Of a stretch of DNA of 64,000 nt, positions 3,581 through 63,722 are shown one piece after another (position 1 is the first letter of the stretch; each line of letters opens with the position of its first letter). Under the pieces are notes generated by a model, which saw only the letters and a program-made list of their open reading frames with translations, did no database searches and was not told the DNA's origin. The stretch is from positions 560 through 64,559 of the forward strand of contig NZCK01000014.1 of assembly GCA_002688265.1 (NCBI GenBank), written 5' to 3'. The position numbers and the translations under genes are program-made. Source of the DNA: an archaeon (GTDB lineage Archaea > Nanobdellota > Nanobdellia > Woesearchaeales > GW2011-AR9).

Positions 3581-4528
3581 TTACCTTGCTTTTGTAATAG
3601 TAAGCGTTTCTGTATCATACAATTTGTAATCATAAGATAAATCCAAATACAAGACTTTTTCCATAGCTGGTGTGTTTGGATCAAAAGTATATTCGCAATC
3701 TAAATCTACTGATTGTTCTCCTGAATCAAATTCATATGAATATCCGTTTGATTCACCTTCTCCTTCAATAAATTCACAAACTAAATCTTCAGCTGTTAAT
3801 TGTGCATTAACTACACTAATTTCTTCAACTTCACCCAAGCCTTTGTTTTCAATATGAAATAAGAAATATGCTTTCCCTAATCTTTCTGAAACTGTTTGTT
3901 CAAACCCACTTACAACTACTGGGCTATATTGGGAATTTGCTTGCACTTCACTTTCTGGATTTTCACAATTTCCATCAACCACATTGTACAGTGAAGGATT
4001 AATACAAATTTCTTGTTCTAATTCTGTGTTGTAATGAAACTTAGCTGTTGCAAACAAAGTTACTTCTAATTCACTGTTTTCTACAGGAATTTCATTAACG
4101 AAGGCATCGAATTCAAAAATGTCATCATCGATTGCAACATTTTCATTGTTATATCCTAGTAGTTTAATATTATCGATAGTATCTGTTTGCCATTCAACTA
4201 AACCATCACTGTATGCAACAGACATTGTTAATTCTCCTTGGGTTAAGTCTTGCGATCCTTGATTTTCTAGATAAATATAAACATAAAGATCACTGAATTC
4301 TTCTATTCTGTCTCTTGGACCAATTTCAAATTCAGTTATTGCTGGTCCAGCATAGCTAGATTCATAATCTAATTCTACAATGTTCCCTCGAACTTCATCA
4401 TCACTACTATTTCCTCCTGAGCAAGCTGTTAATGTGATAACTAGTAATAGAATGGATAATAACAAAACATATCTTAGAGGTTTTGTGATAAACTTTGAAT
4501 TAAGTTGTTGCTGATTCACTTTCTTCAT
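3581..4528 (-). CDS. lipobox-type secreted protein with two beta-sandwich-like modules (paralog 3)
   Basis: LTAC-SGGNSS lipobox. Motifs IYLENQGSQDL and FHIENKGLGEV. C-terminal LDLSYDYKLY...LTI. The track start at 4582 lies 83 nt inside the upstream gene. The internal ATG at 4528 (MKKVNQQQ...) reduces the overlap to 29 nt. Confidence 0.7.
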   Translation of the reverse strand: MKKVNQQQLNSKFITKPLRYVLLLSILLLVITLTACSGGNSSDDEVRGNIVELDYESSYAGPAITEFEIGPRDRIEEFSDLYVYIYLENQGSQDLTQGELTMSVAYSDGLVEWQTDTIDNIKLLGYNNENVAIDDDIFEFDAFVNEIPVENSELEVTLFATAKFHYNTELEQEICINPSLYNVVDGNCENPESEVQANSQYSPVVVSGFEQTVSERLGKAYFLFHIENKGLGEVEEISVVNAQLTAEDLVCEFIEGEGESNGYSYEFDSGEQSVDLDCEYTFDPNTPAMEKVLYLDLSYDYKLYDTETLTITKAR

Positions 4529-6479
4529 CAACTGTTTCTTCGACTGGTTCTTCTGTTGACTCTTCCTCTGCCACTGTATCATATATATCCACCTCCATTC
4601 TAAATTTTCCTTTTATTTGATATTTATAATCTACATTTGCTATAAAATTATGAAATGAAATCCCATAGTCTTCTACGGTGTCTTCAACAGATTCAAAAGA
4701 AACGAAACATGATCCTAAGAAGACAGAATCTCCTTCATTGTTATCTTCTTCGATGTATGTGTTTTGTCCATAAGCACAACTGTCGTCGTCTCCTTGAATT
4801 TCTAATTCTCCTAACTCGAGGGAATAAGAAACTATTTCTGTAATCGTTCCATCTCCAATATTTTCTATATTAGAAGAGAGTACTGGATAATCATCAAGTT
4901 CAATTATTTTTTCACCGATAGCAAAATTTATTGCCACAAATTCGTCTGCATAATATGCATCCCCATTTTTTCCGTCTCCACTAAAAAAAGCTGATAACAA
5001 TTGATATTGGGTTGCGTCTCGCATTGGATTTTCTTCATCATATTGTTCTACTACTGCTCGCTTTAAGTATGAATGAGTCTGCATATTGAAGTCCATAGTT
5101 AACTCTAGGTTATAGTCTCCGTTTAAGTTTTCGGTTGGAGAACAAATAAATTCGTATTCATCACTTTCAGTAATTAACATACTGCCTTCTTCATCTAGCA
5201 ATCCATGACTCACAATTCCAGTTACTGAAGAGTCGTCTCTACCTCTGCCTTCAAAATTACAAGCAACATCAATTTCGAATTCTTTTTCGAGAGGATTTTC
5301 AATTCTAACTTCAACTGGATACATTAGAGAATTTTTATTCTCAGTTATTGTTTTTATTTCATCATCAAAATAACCACCTTTAGTTATTTCAATGTCTACG
5401 TGTTGATCTAAATCTGAACTTACTTGTCCATCTGCTGAGTTTTCCCAGTTTTCTTGGTCTTCGTATACTTTAGCCACACATTCATCATGTGCTGAGCTAC
5501 CTTCATCATATCCTTGGTTATGGCAGTCGGCGCTAATTTCTGCTGCCTCTTTTCTTTCTTCAATACAAACTGCCAAATCATTCATTCTTCCTTCCTTAAA
5601 ACAATGCCAATATGAGACTATTGGATTTTCTGTTCCCGACAATTGCTCACGATATTCTTCTTGTGTTGAAGCGAAGGTTGATGCATCAGGCACTAAACTA
5701 TTAGAATCATAACCAACAGTTGGTATCATTGGAAGTAAAAACACAAACACTATGTATATTACTCCAAGAACATGTAATATTCGCATTAAAGCATTTATTT
5801 TTGATTCTTTGTCTGTTGTATCAATTGGGAAGGTCATTATTCCAAAGAACGCCCACCATGGCATGAATAAAACTAGACTTTGAACAAGATCAGTTATTGG
5901 AAGTCCAATTGTATCAATTAAGAAAGGGATTAATCCAATGTCTAAAAAGAAGAATACAACTGGGATAAATCCATACAGTTCTGGTTGTATGCCTTTTCCT
6001 TTTGTAACTACATCAATTATTATAAGAACAAATGCTGATATCGTCAAAAAATAAATTAAAAAACTAGGCATATAATTTGCTTTAAAATAAAAGTACCATA
6101 CACAAAAAATTAGCATTGGAAAAAATACAACTATCCTATCAACTTGCACTTTCTCGGCCAGAGCATAACCTGCCATTACGAATAACACTAATGATAAAAC
6201 AAAAATAATGGAGCTTGAATCTCCTAATATTGGGCGTAATAAAAATTGAAATGTCCCTAATATTATCATGATGATGGACATGTTTTTTACAGCATTACCT
6301 GCTTGAGTTAATGCGAAGTTTCCAGCAGCAACTGCACCACCTGCAACCGCACTTCCAGCAGCACCAGCAGAGGAAGCCAATTGTCCTCCCATAGCAGCGC
6401 CTGCAGCTCCCGCTACCACGTTAATATAATATTGTAAGAAATTCTCCTTCCTATAACTAGTACCAACTAAGGTTTCCAT
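4500..6479 (-). CDS. polytopic membrane protein fused to the cluster-specific two-module ectodomain
   Basis: Gly/Ala-rich N-terminus (AGAAGAAMGGQLASSAGAAGSAVAGGAVAAG), then about 7 hydrophobic helices. The C-terminal half carries VRIENPLEKEF and NIENIGDGT motifs and an NVDYKYQ strand homologous to ORFs 1386-4528. Acidic tail. Confidence 0.75.
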   Translation of the reverse strand: METLVGTSYRKENFLQYYINVVAGAAGAAMGGQLASSAGAAGSAVAGGAVAAGNFALTQAGNAVKNMSIIMIILGTFQFLLRPILGDSSSIIFVLSLVLFVMAGYALAEKVQVDRIVVFFPMLIFCVWYFYFKANYMPSFLIYFLTISAFVLIIIDVVTKGKGIQPELYGFIPVVFFFLDIGLIPFLIDTIGLPITDLVQSLVLFMPWWAFFGIMTFPIDTTDKESKINALMRILHVLGVIYIVFVFLLPMIPTVGYDSNSLVPDASTFASTQEEYREQLSGTENPIVSYWHCFKEGRMNDLAVCIEERKEAAEISADCHNQGYDEGSSAHDECVAKVYEDQENWENSADGQVSSDLDQHVDIEITKGGYFDDEIKTITENKNSLMYPVEVRIENPLEKEFEIDVACNFEGRGRDDSSVTGIVSHGLLDEEGSMLITESDEYEFICSPTENLNGDYNLELTMDFNMQTHSYLKRAVVEQYDEENPMRDATQYQLLSAFFSGDGKNGDAYYADEFVAINFAIGEKIIELDDYPVLSSNIENIGDGTITEIVSYSLELGELEIQGDDDSCAYGQNTYIEEDNNEGDSVFLGSCFVSFESVEDTVEDYGISFHNFIANVDYKYQIKGKFRMEVDIYDTVAEEESTEEPVEETVDEESESATT

Positions 6480-6721: not shown

Positions 6722-7924
6722 CTACTCCAAATCAACCAACAATTCTCTAACTTCCAAGGTCTTACTTGGTTGTATTGAAATTGCATTATTTCCACTAGTT
6801 ACATAATCACTTATGTCAAAAGAATAACTTGAAGAGGTTGTATCAAAATGTCTTTTGTATCCATTAATACTTACATAACCTGCTTTGGTTTCTCCTTCAT
6901 CGGCAAATTCTAAAGTCACTTCCACAGTATCATCATCATTTAATACACTTTGTTCTTCTTCATATGTTAGTTGGAAATAATAAGTTGGATATTCTACATC
7001 AATTAAATCAGACTTAACTTCTAAGTTATACAACACATAATCCCCAGTATCAGTTGAGAAATGTAAAGTATTTTGTCCAACGAATAACATTGAAGGGTCA
7101 AGTTCTACATCTCCCATTTGAACGCTACAATCTGGACTCGCTGAATACAAAGTGTAAGCACTATTCAAAGTAATAATCATTGTTCCTGAAGTATCACTTG
7201 CACAATCTGGTTGGAAACTAAAGACTGCGGTTTCCATGTTTTCATATTCAGTGTCTGATATACTAAACACGCCTGTAGCCTCACGATGAGAATTATCTGT
7301 AACATCTGATACAATAATTAAAGATTCAATACTAATTTCATTACTGCTCCAAAAAGCAGCACCAGGAGATGACGCACTAAAAACTAACTCGTTATCTTCT
7401 TGAAGTAATTCTGTTGGTAGATCAATGGTTACACTTTCTTCTCCAGTAAATTCTTGTTGCAACAAACTTTCTCCGTTCAATGTTAAAGATAAACTTCCGC
7501 TTGAATCAACTACTCTAAAACTAAGTAATGTGTCATCAACCAGATCGACATCATCAATTCCAAAAGACACTTCTGCATCAGTTGAGCTAAAAACACTGCG
7601 TTTTGCAAAAAGACTGCTTCTCTCAGTGAGTGTTTGAACCTCTGTCTCTGTATAGATATGCACCGAAGCTAGGCTATGTTCCACTTCATCAACGCTTAAG
7701 TATTCTATTTTTCCTGGAAATTCTTCAAGTAATAATTCTCCAGAACTACCTGTGCTATCTGAATCAGAATCAATATCACCATCTAAGATGGCAGCTCTTT
7801 CTTCTGGACTTACTAAGATTACATAAGATACCAGCATTGCCCCAATAATTGCAACTAGAACTGCTGCAGCCGCTGCAGCTTGAGCTTTTTTAGCAAAACT
7901 TCTCTTTCTACCACCTAAAACCAT
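6722..7924 (-). CDS. secreted acidic protein with pilin-like (class III-like) signal peptide, first gene of the surface cluster
   Basis: N-terminus RKRSFAKKA-QAAAAAAVLVAIIGAMLVSYVILV has a basic n-region, K at -2, A at -1, Q at +1 and about 23 hydrophobic residues. This is the archaeal prepilin pattern. The remainder is acidic and Ser/Thr-rich. Confidence 0.7.
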   Translation of the reverse strand: MVLGGRKRSFAKKAQAAAAAAVLVAIIGAMLVSYVILVSPEERAAILDGDIDSDSDSTGSSGELLLEEFPGKIEYLSVDEVEHSLASVHIYTETEVQTLTERSSLFAKRSVFSSTDAEVSFGIDDVDLVDDTLLSFRVVDSSGSLSLTLNGESLLQQEFTGEESVTIDLPTELLQEDNELVFSASSPGAAFWSSNEISIESLIIVSDVTDNSHREATGVFSISDTEYENMETAVFSFQPDCASDTSGTMIITLNSAYTLYSASPDCSVQMGDVELDPSMLFVGQNTLHFSTDTGDYVLYNLEVKSDLIDVEYPTYYFQLTYEEEQSVLNDDDTVEVTLEFADEGETKAGYVSINGYKRHFDTTSSSYSFDISDYVTSGNNAISIQPSKTLEVRELLVDLE

Positions 7925-8116: not shown

Positions 8117-9169
8117 ATGTTAATCAAAAGATTTGAGCCAAAATTAGGAATTGCCAAGATTAAAGTCACCGATCCTGATGACTTGTGGTACCTAAGCCAT
8201 TTAATAGATGCTGGGAATAAGATAAAAGGCACTGCTCACCGTAAGATCAAAATTGGAGAAGGTGACAATGTTAGGATCGTTCGTAAGGTTGTAACTATCA
8301 CAATTTTAGTTGAAAAGATTGAATATCAGGCTCAAAATGCTACGTTAAGAATTAATGGTACTATTGTGGAAGGACCTGATGATTTTCCAAGAGGCAGTTA
8401 TCAAAATATTAGTATTAATGAAGATGACGAACTTAGCATTCAAAAAGAGTATTGGCCTAGTTTTCAAGAGCAGAAATTAAAAGAGGCTGCTAAACCAAAA
8501 CAACAAATATTAATTTGCATAATGAATCGTGAAGAAGCCATTTTTGCTATTTCCACTAAGTTTGGCCATAAGGTTCTTTCAGAATTCAAAGGTGAGACCA
8601 ACAAAAAGTATGCTGGGCACACAAGTAGAGGCAATTTTTACCAGGACTTACAAAAAATTATTCAAGAGTATAATTCTAGGTTCAATCCTTCCAGGATTAT
8701 TTTAGCGTCACCTGCGTTTTATACCGAAGATTTTCTTAAACAAATGAATAATTCAGAGTTTAAAAAAAAAATTATTACTGCTAATTCTTCTTCTGTTGAT
8801 AGTTCTGCAATTACCGAGCTTCTTAAAAATCCTAAACTTCAGTCAACATTGAAAGAAAATCGTGCAACTCAAGAAGCAAATTTAATTGACCAGTTACTAA
8901 GAGAGATAGGGAAAGGGTCTGGGAAGTATGCTTATGGTTTAAGAGATACTTCTAATGCTATTTTGCAGGGTGCTGCTGTTAAGGTTTTAGTTTCGACTAA
9001 GTATATTAATAAAGCGAAGGAAGAGAATAATTATGCAGAGATTGATTCTGTGTTAGTTACTGCTGATAGAATGAAAGCAGAGGTTCATATTTTATTTAGT
9101 GATTTGCAAAGCGGTAAGCAGTTAGATGGGCTTGGAGGAATAGCTGCAGTTCTAAGATATGCAATTTAA
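8117..9169 (+). CDS. pelA: Pelota / Dom34 (mRNA surveillance, ribosome rescue)
   Basis: 350 aa. The N-terminus MLIKRF...IKVTDPDDLWYLSHLI is typical of Pelota. eRF1-like central and C-terminal domains. Confidence 0.9.
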   Translation: MLIKRFEPKLGIAKIKVTDPDDLWYLSHLIDAGNKIKGTAHRKIKIGEGDNVRIVRKVVTITILVEKIEYQAQNATLRINGTIVEGPDDFPRGSYQNISINEDDELSIQKEYWPSFQEQKLKEAAKPKQQILICIMNREEAIFAISTKFGHKVLSEFKGETNKKYAGHTSRGNFYQDLQKIIQEYNSRFNPSRIILASPAFYTEDFLKQMNNSEFKKKIITANSSSVDSSAITELLKNPKLQSTLKENRATQEANLIDQLLREIGKGSGKYAYGLRDTSNAILQGAAVKVLVSTKYINKAKEENNYAEIDSVLVTADRMKAEVHILFSDLQSGKQLDGLGGIAAVLRYAI

Positions 9170-42417: not shown

Positions 42418-43530
42418 TTAACTAATAGAAAACCTAAGCAATGCTGCATATCCACCTAAATTCTTAAGCTGCACACCTTCTCGAGTCTCCCCAGATATCA
42501 CTCGAACTTCACTTCCACTTTCTTCAGCAGCATCCTCATAATCTTGAATTACTTCTTCTGAGACTACATCTTCAGATAACAACAACACATCAACTGCCCC
42601 CATCTTCATTGCTTTCTCTACTTGAGCTTTCCCATAAGTCACCCGATGCTCATCTTTAACCAAACGCATCAAAAAACGCTGCATAATCTTTTTCTCCTGA
42701 GCTACTTCCTCTGCTGCAAGTAAATCTTCAGACTTCTCAAGTAACTCTTGTAAACCAAAATCTCCAGTATATGACAAATCTTTGGTTCCAATAATTTTTT
42801 TCTTCAAATCACCTGTGACATAGTCTTTATTCATAAAATCTTGAACAGTAACTCCTGGACCACCAATAATTATTCCCATCAAATTATTTCCTAAATGTAA
42901 AAATTGATCTTTCATGTATTCTGCAACTTTCTTGTAATGTTCTTTAGCAGCACCTTCACGCAGACGAGCGAAACGTTGAGCGGATTGACCTCCTGCCCGG
43001 AACTTTCCTGGAACTTCAGAATGAGTTTTCTGTAAAGGAACAATTGTCTTTCCCTTAAGCAAAGCGATATTGGCGTCCCTTCGATCCATAACAACTAATC
43101 CGTATGCTCGTTTATCAACCATTAAATTTTCTAGATGTTCAGTAACGAATGCTTTATCACAACGATAAATTCGAATGTTCAGCGGAACTGGTGGTTCTAT
43201 ACTCCATGAATGAAAATCTTGTTTTCCCTGTGTTGAACCTAAATTTCCAGCAAACACAGCCAATCCATTTTTTGGAGTTTTAGAATATCCCTTTAACGTC
43301 TGGATCATTTTTTCAAGTGCGTTTTGAACATTTTTACGAGTCACAGCACTTTTAATGTTAGATGCTGTTCCTTGCTCATCAGAAAGGTGATTAATAATTT
43401 TAGAAATATCATATCCTGCTGGAACATACACTGATACAAACTCTGTGTGCATAGCTCTTTGAGCTTTTAGTTCCCGAATTAGATTTTTCAATCTTCGACG
43501 TTCTTTTGGTGGTATAACAACAGTTGACAT
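42418..43530 (-). CDS. prf1: peptide chain release factor aRF1
   Basis: NIKS (TASNIKSAV) and GGQ (RAGGQSAQRF) motifs. Confidence 0.95.
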   Translation of the reverse strand: MSTVVIPPKERRRLKNLIRELKAQRAMHTEFVSVYVPAGYDISKIINHLSDEQGTASNIKSAVTRKNVQNALEKMIQTLKGYSKTPKNGLAVFAGNLGSTQGKQDFHSWSIEPPVPLNIRIYRCDKAFVTEHLENLMVDKRAYGLVVMDRRDANIALLKGKTIVPLQKTHSEVPGKFRAGGQSAQRFARLREGAAKEHYKKVAEYMKDQFLHLGNNLMGIIIGGPGVTVQDFMNKDYVTGDLKKKIIGTKDLSYTGDFGLQELLEKSEDLLAAEEVAQEKKIMQRFLMRLVKDEHRVTYGKAQVEKAMKMGAVDVLLLSEDVVSEEVIQDYEDAAEESGSEVRVISGETREGVQLKNLGGYAALLRFSIS

Positions 43531-56144: not shown

Positions 56145-56240
56145 AATTTACCAAATTACTTTAGTTATTTATAAAATTTATCTTTATAGTCTCAATTGAG
56201 AGGACAAAGATTATTATAATCAAGAGATTGCTACTCTCAC

Positions 56241-61923: not shown

Positions 61924-61933
61924 TTTATAAATA
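61924..61933 (+). promoter_or_regulatory. TATA box for the murein-hydrolase-like gene pair
   Basis: TTTATAAATA ends 30 nt upstream of the ATG at 61963. Confidence 0.45.
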
Positions 61934-61962: not shown

Positions 61963-63078
61963 ATGGCTAAAAAAAGAAAAAAACAAGGTTTAGAAGATCG
62001 ACTTAAGTCTAGTGCTATTCAGGTAGGAAAGAGTTTACAGAACGGTGTTAACTCTTGGGGCCCTTACGCTCTAGCTACAATAGCAACAGCTGCTGGTCTT
62101 GAATCAGCTATTGACAATTATGGAGCCATTCTTAACACTCCTGAACTAGTTGACACTGTTGCTTTTTATGGTGGGCTTGGTGCTTTAGCTACATTAGTAC
62201 TAAAACCAATTCATTCAGACAGTTTATCAAATTTTGCAAGGAGTATTGGAAATGCTGTTTACCGTGGCGTTACTAGAAGCAAAAAAGATAAATTCAGATA
62301 TGATACAAAAAGAGATACTGAAAAGAAAAAAAGAGATTTTCAAAAGAGTGCTATTAAGAAAAATATTCGCTCAGGAATACTAGCAGCAGGCCTTACTGCA
62401 ATGTTATGTGTACCTGGTTTTAAACAACATGCCAAATACGCTATTGGAGATGTAGCAGGAGATGTTGCAACTGTAGCAGAAGGCATCCAAGGTTTACTTG
62501 AAGACAAAGTAGCTATTTCTTCAAATACAAATTCAGAATACAACAATATGTTTGAAACTTTAGAGTACAAAGATAGTACTTGGGAAAGTAGAGCTGTTGG
62601 CTTAGCTGACACCATTCAGGCTAACAAAAGTAAGTACAAAGTTGTTGAGAGAAAAACAGGTGTTCCTTGGTATGTAATTGGGGCAATTCACATGCGTGAA
62701 TCTAGTGGTAGGTTTGATACTTACTTGCACAATGGAGAAGATCTTGGAACTGTTACTAAAAAAGTTCCGAAAGGAATTTTCTTTACTGATTGGAACCAAG
62801 CAGCAATTGATGCGCTTGAGCGTCACTTTACTAATAATCAAGGTAGGTTTGGAACTCTTGAAGCTGTAGAACGTTACAATGGAATTGGTGCAAGAAAAAG
62901 AACTTGTGATGGTAACCCTGTTCCAACACCTTATCTTTGGAGTGGTTCGCAACATTATGAAACTGGAGACTATGTTGCAGACGGAGTCTTCAAATGTGTT
63001 CCAGACAAACAAGTTGGTGTAGCTCCAATTCTAAAAGCTATGATCGCTCGTGGCCACATTAAAGAGGTTGAATTATGA
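61963..63078 (+). CDS. membrane-anchored lysozyme-family (muramidase/transglycosylase-like) protein
   Basis: Basic N-terminus and about 3 hydrophobic helices. The C-terminal domain has GVPWYVIGAIHMRESS, ERYNGIG and PYLWSGSQHYETGDYVADGVF. From memory this resembles the bacterial COG5526-type lysozyme family. Confidence 0.65.
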   Translation: MAKKRKKQGLEDRLKSSAIQVGKSLQNGVNSWGPYALATIATAAGLESAIDNYGAILNTPELVDTVAFYGGLGALATLVLKPIHSDSLSNFARSIGNAVYRGVTRSKKDKFRYDTKRDTEKKKRDFQKSAIKKNIRSGILAAGLTAMLCVPGFKQHAKYAIGDVAGDVATVAEGIQGLLEDKVAISSNTNSEYNNMFETLEYKDSTWESRAVGLADTIQANKSKYKVVERKTGVPWYVIGAIHMRESSGRFDTYLHNGEDLGTVTKKVPKGIFFTDWNQAAIDALERHFTNNQGRFGTLEAVERYNGIGARKRTCDGNPVPTPYLWSGSQHYETGDYVADGVFKCVPDKQVGVAPILKAMIARGHIKEVEL

Positions 63079-63722
63079 GAAGAGATCGTAAAAAATCTGG
63101 TAAACGTGGACTAATTGCGATTCTTGGATTAAGTGCTTTTATTGGAATCAGTGCACTTCTTGGAAAAGACATTCAAATTCCTGGCCCATCTAAAGGTAGT
63201 ACTGCAAAGAGAATTGTTGACGAAACTTTAGAAGAGTACGAAAGGTTTGGGAAAGGTAAAATCAAAGAATCAAAAATGTGTGATCTTATTGAAGACACTT
63301 ATTTTCCTGCAGGTAATGGAGATGGCTTTTCTTGCACAGGAGACGCTTGGTCTGCAGCTTTTGTGTCTTATGTAATGGATGAAGCAGATGTAGACTTTCC
63401 TGGACATTATCGTCATTTAACTTATTTTACCACTATTAGAGATAATCCTCGTTCTTATGATTGCCAAACAGAAACAATGTCGAAAATATCAGATATTGAA
63501 CCAGGAGACGTCTTATGTGGAGGAAGGTCTGGAAGTCAGATTGATTATAATATCTCTCATGGTGAAAAAAGAAATTCTCATTGTGATGTTGTCATCAAAA
63601 ACCGAGAAGACTCCTTGTTAGTAATTGGTGGAAACGTAGGACATTCAGTAGAATCTACAGTCATTCCTAAGAGTGATCTAGGTAATTCAAAATATTTTGG
63701 ATTTATCTCTTGCGACGATTAA
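63075..63722 (+). CDS. signal-anchored DUF2272 / NlpC-P60-like putative peptidoglycan amidase or peptidase
   Basis: N-terminal signal anchor. Motifs FSCTGDAWSAAFVSYVM and HCDVVI...VIGGNVGHSV. ATGA overlap with the upstream gene. Confidence 0.6.
   Translation: MRRDRKKSGKRGLIAILGLSAFIGISALLGKDIQIPGPSKGSTAKRIVDETLEEYERFGKGKIKESKMCDLIEDTYFPAGNGDGFSCTGDAWSAAFVSYVMDEADVDFPGHYRHLTYFTTIRDNPRSYDCQTETMSKISDIEPGDVLCGGRSGSQIDYNISHGEKRNSHCDVVIKNREDSLLVIGGNVGHSVESTVIPKSDLGNSKYFGFISCDD

Follow-up and report, generated by a model that had tools for sequence, protein, structure and literature searches.

Peptidoglycan hydrolases of bacterial origin have been described in archaea, where they are enriched in Nanoarchaeota/DPANN and were read as anti-bacterial (Strock et al., PLoS Biol 2025, PMC12352652). 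The GH23 murein transglycosylases of Woesearchaeota were interpreted in the same way (Vigneron et al. 2022, PMC9723730). The enzymes in these studies can be recognized with Pfam or CAZy, are mostly modular and secreted, and combine a catalytic with a cell-wall-binding domain. In this work we analyzed two overlapping open reading frames (ORFs), ORF A and ORF B, that lie near the end of a 64,000-nucleotide stretch of DNA, hereafter the window, from an archaeon of the Woesearchaeales (GCA_002688265.1, contig NZCK01000014.1). Like the enzymes surveyed before, their products are homologs of murein-directed proteins in a murein-free archaeon, presumably have a bacterial or phage source, and are suggested to act against bacteria. 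In contrast to them, ORF A and ORF B feature membrane anchors and no binding domain. Both hence lie outside the definition of a modular archaeal peptidoglycan hydrolase, i.e., a catalytic plus a cell-wall-binding domain (Strock et al. 2025). They further differ in their families, a domain that has no Pfam model and DUF2272, neither of which is mentioned in those surveys, in their coupled two-gene layout, and in a second gene that can be swapped. In the literature searched, we found no account of DUF2272 in archaea.

An earlier note on this DNA had put forward archaeal murein hydrolases aimed at bacteria. For DPANN this concept is already known (PMC12352652, PMC9723730) and is less new than the note implied. 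The present pair, for which activity is predicted, fits it. On balance, we lean toward reading the two products as a murein-directed pair of membrane-tethered ectoenzymes, whose activities, substrate and ecological role we infer.

Results

ORF B is a DUF2272 protein with a predicted papain-like fold

ORF B matched the Pfam family DUF2272 (PF10030) with 59.2 bits against a gathering threshold of 27 (E 6.2e-16), and its residues 88-202 aligned with positions 44-168 of the 191 profile positions. This agrees with the DUF2272 half of the DUF2272/TIGR02594-type label given in the earlier note. The TIGR02594 half was not upheld, as the score of 19.6 bits stays below the NCBIfam cutoff of 70.55. ORF B is hence a relative of TIGR02594 and not a member of it.

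The AlphaFold2 model of ORF B (pLDDT 83.6) found papain-like proteins as its top Foldseek matches, with modest E-values: the CHAP endolysin Ly7917 (5d74, prob 1.0, E 0.014), Gsp amidase, PlyC and the phi812 CHAP domain, and furthermore the pseudomurein endoisopeptidase PeiR (8z4h, E 0.22), Trichomonas NlpC and calpain. Alignments of DUF2272 by hhalign with the single sequences of Escherichia coli Gsp amidase and MepS did not reach significance (P 0.22 and 0.6); in both, His169 fell on the catalytic His. The model thus points to a papain-like fold of the NlpC/P60-CHAP type. In a classification of papain-like proteins, DUF2272 is likewise placed in the NlpC/P60-CHAP-amidase group, with a conserved Ser that replaces Cys beside the other two active-site residues (PMC10318531).

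We aligned 40 DUF2272 homologs, ORF B included, that share about 25-30% identity. Invariant positions are Ser93, His114, Tyr117, Asp145, Cys148, Arg151, His169, Cys170 and Gly185-Gly186-Asn187, among them the three residues of the candidate triad (Table 1). The earlier note had been right to see Ser in place of Cys at the nucleophile position; however, this is not a local change but a feature of the whole family. The note had also considered an upstream Cys as a possible catalytic residue. Cys87 can be ruled out as an alternative nucleophile, because it is present in only two of the 40 sequences, both of them archaeal. With its predicted papain-like fold, the His and Asn in HxD...GGN and the predicted extracytoplasmic location, ORF B resembles TIGR02594, CHAP and NlpC/P60 amidases, including amidase effectors of the type VI secretion system (T6SS). 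It differs from CHAP and NlpC/P60 amidases in that Ser, not Cys, occupies the nucleophile position and activity is only predicted.

Profile searches returned at least 2,662 DUF2272 proteins. All taxon-labeled matches were bacterial except for the Nanoarchaeota ortholog described below, and DUF2272 was absent from the 50,697 GenBank phage records searched. The closest non-archaeal DUF2272 homolog of ORF B (36% identity) is encoded at 6001-6696 of contig JAXOUH010014930.1 (GCA_034680565.1; locus L004). There it sits in a run of small same-strand ORFs beside a 900-aa ORF, an arrangement that resembles a phage structural region. In some phages, DUF2272 may hence be virion-associated.

The ORF A domain belongs to a large and possibly lysozyme-like family

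The C-terminal domain of ORF A is a member of a family, here called family A, of at least 3,210 representative clusters (50% identity) at E<=1e-3, with 2,305 at E<=1e-10. In an alignment of 23 family sequences, Glu246, Asp283, Glu303, Asn306, Gly307 (the latter three in ERYNG) and Asp340 are invariant, and position 259 is Asp or Glu in 21 of them. Glu246 is the Glu of the E-S catalytic-type motif pointed out in the earlier note, and its invariance speaks for the motif. The name 'lysozyme family protein' was given by JGI to 13 family A homologs, and fusions link the family to PG_binding_1 (PF01471), CHAP, Peptidase_M15_3, SH3_3 and GDSL/SGNH domains. Bacterial homologs end in C-terminal hydrophobic tails. 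A match to SLT_2 was seen in one of the 23 homologs (E 0.022), while SLT or related Pfam models were not matched by ORF A; family A homologs do not match Glyco_hydro_108/COG3926 either. Very large family members of 2,038 and 2,243 aa also occur, in which no domains were recognizable.

With the AlphaFold2 model of the domain (pLDDT 91.5, pTM 0.87), a single true homolog was found in BFVD, the 511-aa 'Peptidoglycan binding-like' Caudovirales protein A0A6J5MUJ5 (TM 0.79, E 3.7e-12); the other BFVD matches are weak LT_GEWL/SLT proteins. In the PDB, the better Foldseek matches are almost all lysozyme-like, namely g-type lysozymes, the T6SS glycoside hydrolase effector Tge (4kt3), FlgJ, MltE, MltF and Slt, all of them weak. 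Goose lysozyme, for example, was matched with E 0.29 and TM 0.35-0.38 (GEWL, 3gxk) or TM 0.43/0.45 (153l). The model thus suggests a lysozyme-like domain, an assignment that is not established at scores as weak as these.

The candidate catalytic Glu of ORF A is located at a helix end of the model and is followed by Ser or a small residue, which may correspond to the arrangement in GH23 goose-type lysozymes and family-1 lytic transglycosylases. A YN.G motif lies downstream, ERYNGIG in ORF A and AYNAG in GH23/SLT. Unlike GH23/SLT proteins, ORF A has no SLT Pfam match and reaches TM scores of 0.35-0.45 only. Moreover, its family has extra invariant acidic residues (D283, E303, D340), and a D/E follows the Glu at a distance of 13 residues.

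The family in question is probably COG5526, the label suggested in the earlier note. In COG5526, this region is reportedly combined with a peptidoglycan-binding domain and a transmembrane module. Measured against this description, family A is alike in its E-S motif with an invariant Glu and in homologs that carry a peptidoglycan-binding domain and a transmembrane module. The transmembrane module of COG5526 is reportedly C-terminal, whereas in the archaeal clade three helices are located N-terminally, the binding domain is missing, and a clade-specific insertion comes with a Cys pair.

Both proteins are predicted to be anchored in the membrane

The earlier note had described ORF A with a basic N-terminus and about three transmembrane helices. 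We found eight Lys/Arg in residues 1-32, followed by two clear transmembrane segments and one weaker segment, in reasonable agreement with that description, and this N-terminal membrane module is kept in five long archaeal-type homologs. The loop ahead of the last segment (aa 85-137) holds 17 Lys/Arg and is predicted to be cytoplasmic. From the positive-inside rule it follows that the C-terminal domain would be outside the cell. ORF B was correctly described as signal-anchored; it has one transmembrane segment or signal anchor behind a cluster of basic residues (Table 1). The catalytic domains of both proteins are hence predicted to be extracellular.

In addition, both ectodomains contain Cys residues that are particular to the archaeal sequences. 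In ORF A these are part of a CxG insertion (Cys315, 62905-62907) and Cys345 (62995-62997), absent from bacterial homologs, and in ORF B Cys69, Cys87, Cys130 and Cys213. They may form added disulfides, which would fit an extracellular location.

The pair recurs in archaea and its second gene is exchanged

A survey of related genomes, as suggested in the earlier note, showed that another Nanoarchaeota lineage has the pair, too. It is present, likewise with a 4-nt overlap and at 60-62% identity, in a Nanoarchaeota metagenome-assembled genome (MAG; GCA_030698685.1, locus L001) and in a Logan assembly. These orthologs are diverged but intact, and all candidate catalytic residues are retained. In GCA_030698685.1, ThyX and MsrB adjoin the pair, i.e., the neighborhood differs from that in the window.

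Further archaeal-type A genes with the conserved N-terminal module were found at locus L005, in an archaeal MAG, and at L092 and L093 (context: L37ae, prefoldin, SepF), and short versions with one transmembrane segment at L003 and L094. In L005 (4531-5097) and L092 (1158-1742), the gene that overlaps the 3' end of the A homolog does not encode DUF2272. Instead, this alternative partner is a Cys-rich, signal-anchored protein of 188-194 aa that is unrelated to DUF2272 and 51% identical between the two loci. Its N-terminal anchor, however, resembles the anchor of the DUF2272 partners (52% over 29 aa). Sequence searches of Pfam, PHROGs and the PDB gave no match for the alternative partner. By eye, we had seen features of a LAS/M15 zinc peptidase (KNSAHYGCKD.Y.GSLAVDF, H..VHISV), an identity that was dropped because none of these searches supported it.

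In L005, the pair is followed by a third ORF (5066-6058; 319-330 aa, probable start Met at 5099) with a signal-peptide-like N-terminus, which is absent from the syntenic L092. A SleB-like identity of this ORF, read by eye from 'YFEAG...NVIKNR', was likewise set aside, as there was no Pfam, PHROG or PDB match. Beside the A genes of L093, L003 and L094, neither DUF2272 nor the alternative partner was present. A metagenome scan yielded no further archaeal-type loci besides the window's own contig and short fragments.

Relatives in bacteria and phages and the origin of the pair

We scanned 185,579 species-representative genomes with a profile built from a 6-sequence alignment of family A. Of the 80 loci obtained, 79 are bacterial, mainly from Bradyrhizobium, Xanthobacteraceae and Nostoc. 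The domain was furthermore carried by 44 viral contigs of IMG/VR. The cultured Bradyrhizobium phage ppBjS10J-1 (L085, OP596615.1, 4899-6757) encodes it at the N-terminal end of a 315-aa protein, named 'peptidoglycan-binding protein', that also has a peptidoglycan-binding repeat. Overlapping ORFs of 81 aa (two transmembrane segments), 171 aa (about three) and 51 aa (one) follow. This layout looks like an unannotated lysis cassette, with the family A protein in the endolysin position and holin-like transmembrane ORFs behind it.

Within the fetched flanks of 189 family A loci (79 bacterial, 65 metagenomic, 44 viral and 1 phage), neither DUF2272 nor the alternative partner was found, and the phage-like DUF2272 contig L004 holds no family A homolog. 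Hence the pairing was apparently assembled within the archaeal lineage or in an unsampled donor. In an unbootstrapped neighbor-joining tree, the archaeal-type A sequences form one clade that is nested in a bacterial and unlabeled radiation, with P0167 and P0169 as sister sequences. Family A is overwhelmingly bacterial or phage-borne, and the horizontal acquisition proposed in the earlier note is hence plausible. A recent transfer is not visible, however, and was ruled out on composition, as the GC content of the gene pair (36-38%) lies inside the range across the window (29-38%).

Genomic setting

The two ORFs joined by an ATGA overlap that the earlier note had placed at 61963-63722 were borne out in coordinates, lengths (371 and 215 aa) and overlap (ATGA at 63075-63078; Table 1). 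The motifs it quoted are present in the translations as well (GVPWYVIGAIHMRESS, ERYNGIG and PYLWSGSQHYETGDYVADGVF in ORF A; DAWSAAFVSYVM and HCDVVI...VIGGNVGHSV in ORF B, with Cys87 six residues ahead of Ser93). A full-length homolog at 62% identity and thousands of domain homologs mark ORF A as a real gene, and for ORF B this is marked by a DUF2272 score that exceeds the Pfam gathering threshold.

Table 1. Positions in the window of the two genes, their predicted domains and residues, and nearby signals
Feature	Position	Strand	Remarks
ORF A	61963..63078	+	371 aa; N-terminal membrane module, then putative C-terminal lysozyme-like domain
ORF B	63075..63722	+	215 aa; signal-anchored DUF2272 protein, predicted papain-like fold
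Predicted catalytic domain of ORF A	62530..63075	+	About aa 190-371; AlphaFold2 model, phage homolog, large family
Glu246 codon (E of HMRES), candidate catalytic acid	62698..62700	+	Invariant 23/23; C-terminal end of model helix 61-72
Ser93 codon (AWSAAF), papain-like nucleophile position	63351..63353	+	Ser in 40/40 aligned homologs
His169 codon (SHCD), candidate catalytic His	63579..63581	+	40/40
Asn187 codon (GGNV), candidate third triad residue	63633..63635	+	40/40; role by analogy with CHAP/NlpC-P60 triads
ORF A membrane module	62059..62421	+	Hydropathy and charge counts; weak transmembrane segment aa 33-52, transmembrane segments aa 62-82 and aa 135-153
ORF B signal-anchor/transmembrane segment	63108..63164	+	aa 12-30 (hydropathy); 7 Lys/Arg in aa 1-12
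Shine-Dalgarno-like GAGGT	63064..63068	+	Within 3' end of ORF A; 6 nt ahead of ORF B ATG; read from sequence
TATA-box-like TTTATAAATA	61924..61933	+	30 nt 5' of ORF A ATG; putative promoter for two-gene operon

The GAGGT motif together with the ATGA overlap suggests translational coupling of ORF B to ORF A. The TATA box that the earlier note had assigned to the pair is present, and its role as a promoter is modestly supported. The window contains three copies of TTTATAAATA where 0.92 are expected, and three matches were reached in 7 of 100 shuffles. Another exact copy (56166-56175, minus strand) is located 22-31 nt 5' of the start of a TrmB-family regulator gene (56144). Such a position agrees with the motif being a true promoter element of this genome, one that drives leaderless or nearly leaderless transcripts.

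The window contains an RNase P RNA of the archaeal type (123.9 bits) as well as core archaeal genes, i.e., those for PheRS alpha and beta, aRF1, a Pelota-like protein, a PAN-type AAA ATPase and SecD/F, and also genes for a Tyr/Trp-tRNA synthetase, an NFACT protein and a dCTP deaminase. The ORF A and ORF B proteins were moreover recovered from several independent contigs and samples. The archaeal core genes, the matching GC content and the recurrence on independent contigs make contamination, a chimeric assembly or a provirus unlikely, and on gene context and recurrence we ruled out provirus or contamination as the source of the pair.

Elsewhere in the window, two large ORFs of 659 and 400 aa (4500-6479 and 6722-7924, both on the minus strand) have no Pfam match at E<=1e-5. 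Two eRF1-fold proteins, encoded at 8117-9169 (plus strand) and 42418-43530 (minus strand), are presumably Pelota and aRF1, which is ordinary for archaea.

Discussion

We propose that the pair forms a translationally coupled two-gene operon by which a DPANN-type (Nanoarchaeota-like) archaeon would produce two ectoenzymes tethered to its own membrane. The catalytic domains of both may have descended from bacterial or phage cell-wall enzymes. In ORF A, the three-helix membrane module would display a lysozyme-like domain on the cell's exterior, where Glu246 would act as the general acid in glycan cleavage. ORF B would be a signal-anchored, papain-like hydrolase of the DUF2272 type with Ser93-His169-Asn187 as its site. 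Most likely it would cut the peptide part of murein, either as an amidase or as an endopeptidase. As such archaea lack murein, the wall of a bacterium that directly touches the archaeon would be the likely substrate. Glycan and peptide cuts might then be made jointly at the contact site, for attachment, for access to the cell contents or for killing.

Several observations weigh against this proposal. ORF A, searched as the full protein, as its C-terminal domain and as the 23-sequence profile, found no Pfam, NCBIfam, PHROGs or PDB sequence match. The Foldseek comparison of its model with the PDB is weak, with a best E of 0.29, TM scores of 0.35-0.45 and no match at E<0.001. When family A was aligned by hhalign with E. 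coli Slt, MltC, MltD, MltE and MltF, GVPWYVIGAIHMRES was placed on the catalytic motif of SLT so that the two Glu coincide, although the match is weak (P 0.045, probability 1.2%). Of the bacterial lysozyme-type domain seen in the earlier note, the JGI naming, the fusions with cell-wall domains and the invariant Glu speak for the assignment, and the missing Pfam and PDB sequence matches and the weak fold scores against it. The activity of DUF2272 is called speculative by the authors who classified it (PMC10318531), and in ORF B Ser stands for Cys. Pfam and NCBIfam detected no peptidoglycan-binding module in ORF A or ORF B, and in the literature searched we found no demonstrated activity for any member of family A or DUF2272. 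The DUF2272 partner was present in two of the seven archaeal-type lineages sampled. The short linkers, about 35 aa in ORF A and about 10-15 aa in ORF B, must span the archaeon's own surface layer, and Gram-negative targets would add an outer membrane for tethered enzymes to cross. Finally, most characterized DPANN have archaeal hosts.

ORF B might also be non-enzymatic, that is, a catalytically inactive papain-like module which would attach to murein peptides and so target or regulate ORF A, which has no binding domain of its own. The nucleophile is changed from Cys to Ser throughout the family, and the authors who consider its activity speculative also cite inactive peptidoglycan-binding relatives such as DUF1175 (PMC10318531). 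Nevertheless, we regard this as unlikely, since Ser93, His169 and Asn187 are invariant in all 40 sequences at about 25-30% identity, as expected for a working triad. In addition, the pocket of DUF2272 is negatively charged and compatible with Ser catalysis (PMC10318531), and in other lineages an unrelated protein takes the partner's place.

The family assignments and the outward topology that lead us to propose murein-directed ectoenzymes would equally fit surface-bound scavenging. The pair would then trim free peptidoglycan debris or muropeptides and thereby supply an archaeon of reduced metabolism with sugars and amino acids. Membrane tethering would keep the products near the cell, the cell-wall-binding domain typical of lytic enzymes is missing, and DPANN have been described as recyclers of cellular compounds (PMC9723730). 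However, the genes adjoining the pair (dCTP deaminase, NFACT protein, MFS fragment) are not amino-sugar uptake or catabolic genes, and phage homologs occupy lysis-type positions. We therefore hold scavenging to be rather improbable.

It is similarly improbable in our view that the pair acts not on bacterial murein but on a polymer of an archaeal envelope (pseudomurein, a glycan layer or glycoprotein), either the producer's own or that of an archaeon serving as host. A bacterial toolkit would in this case have been repurposed for archaeon-archaeon episymbiosis. Characterized DPANN live mostly on archaeal hosts, the pseudomurein endoisopeptidase PeiR (8z4h, E 0.22) is among the fold matches of ORF B, and the lysozyme-like folds also include chitinases and chitosanases. 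Yet the nearest relatives of ORF A are bacterial and phage proteins with murein-binding domains, and PeiR is one weak match among many CHAP/NlpC matches. Moreover, the glycan linkage of pseudomurein resists lysozymes.

A viral or mobile-element remnant (lysis module) or an assembly or binning artefact, in either case with no role for the archaeon, is very improbable: although family A is common on contigs of viruses, the DUF2272 homolog nearest to ORF B outside archaea is located on the phage-like contig L004 and the neighborhood of the pair differs between the window and L001, core archaeal genes flank it on the same contig with matching GC, it occurs on several independent contigs and in several samples, no holin, integrase or capsid genes are near it in the window, and intact orthologs at 60-62% identity that keep the candidate catalytic residues imply purifying selection.

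We return to two ectoenzymes that would act on a bacterial wall. Phage lysis cassettes and the specialized lytic transglycosylases of bacterial secretion machines likewise open murein locally, with an enzyme that cleaves the glycan and in some cases a peptidase as well. Family A holds an endolysin-like slot in phage ppBjS10J-1, in analogy to such lysis cassettes. Unlike the phage lysis and secretion systems, ORF A and ORF B are chromosomal genes of an archaeon, come with no holin, and would be anchored in the producer's own membrane, facing outward. One could go further and speculate that the archaeal loci represent a contact-dependent wall-breaching cassette. Here a conserved lysozyme-like enzyme, anchored by three helices, would be translationally coupled to an interchangeable, signal-anchored second hydrolase, which is DUF2272 in some lineages and the unrelated Cys-rich protein in others, to open the murein of bacteria that the archaeon sits upon. 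We put this forward tentatively, as a possibility that remains doubtful. In the literature searched, both families in this role, anchors that replace the wall-binding domain, the arrangement as two translationally coupled genes, and a second gene that is exchanged while its anchor is conserved are undescribed.

If the pair is active on murein, this DPANN lineage is probably in physical contact with bacteria, whereas the characterized DPANN partners are archaea, and the pair would represent a concrete surface machinery open to testing. A wall-breaching cassette, if true, would mean that a DPANN lineage has bacteria as hosts or prey. It would also provide a first activity for two uncharacterized enzyme families, including a papain-like murein peptidase with a Ser nucleophile. 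Surveys that need Pfam-recognizable catalytic and wall-binding domains would miss archaeal murein hydrolases of this kind. The published figure of about 5% of archaeal genomes might hence be too low. The two genes would also serve as a test case for two large families, the lysozyme-like family A with at least 3,210 clusters and DUF2272 with at least 2,662 proteins, and ORF B in particular bears on whether the papain-like fold works with a Ser nucleophile.

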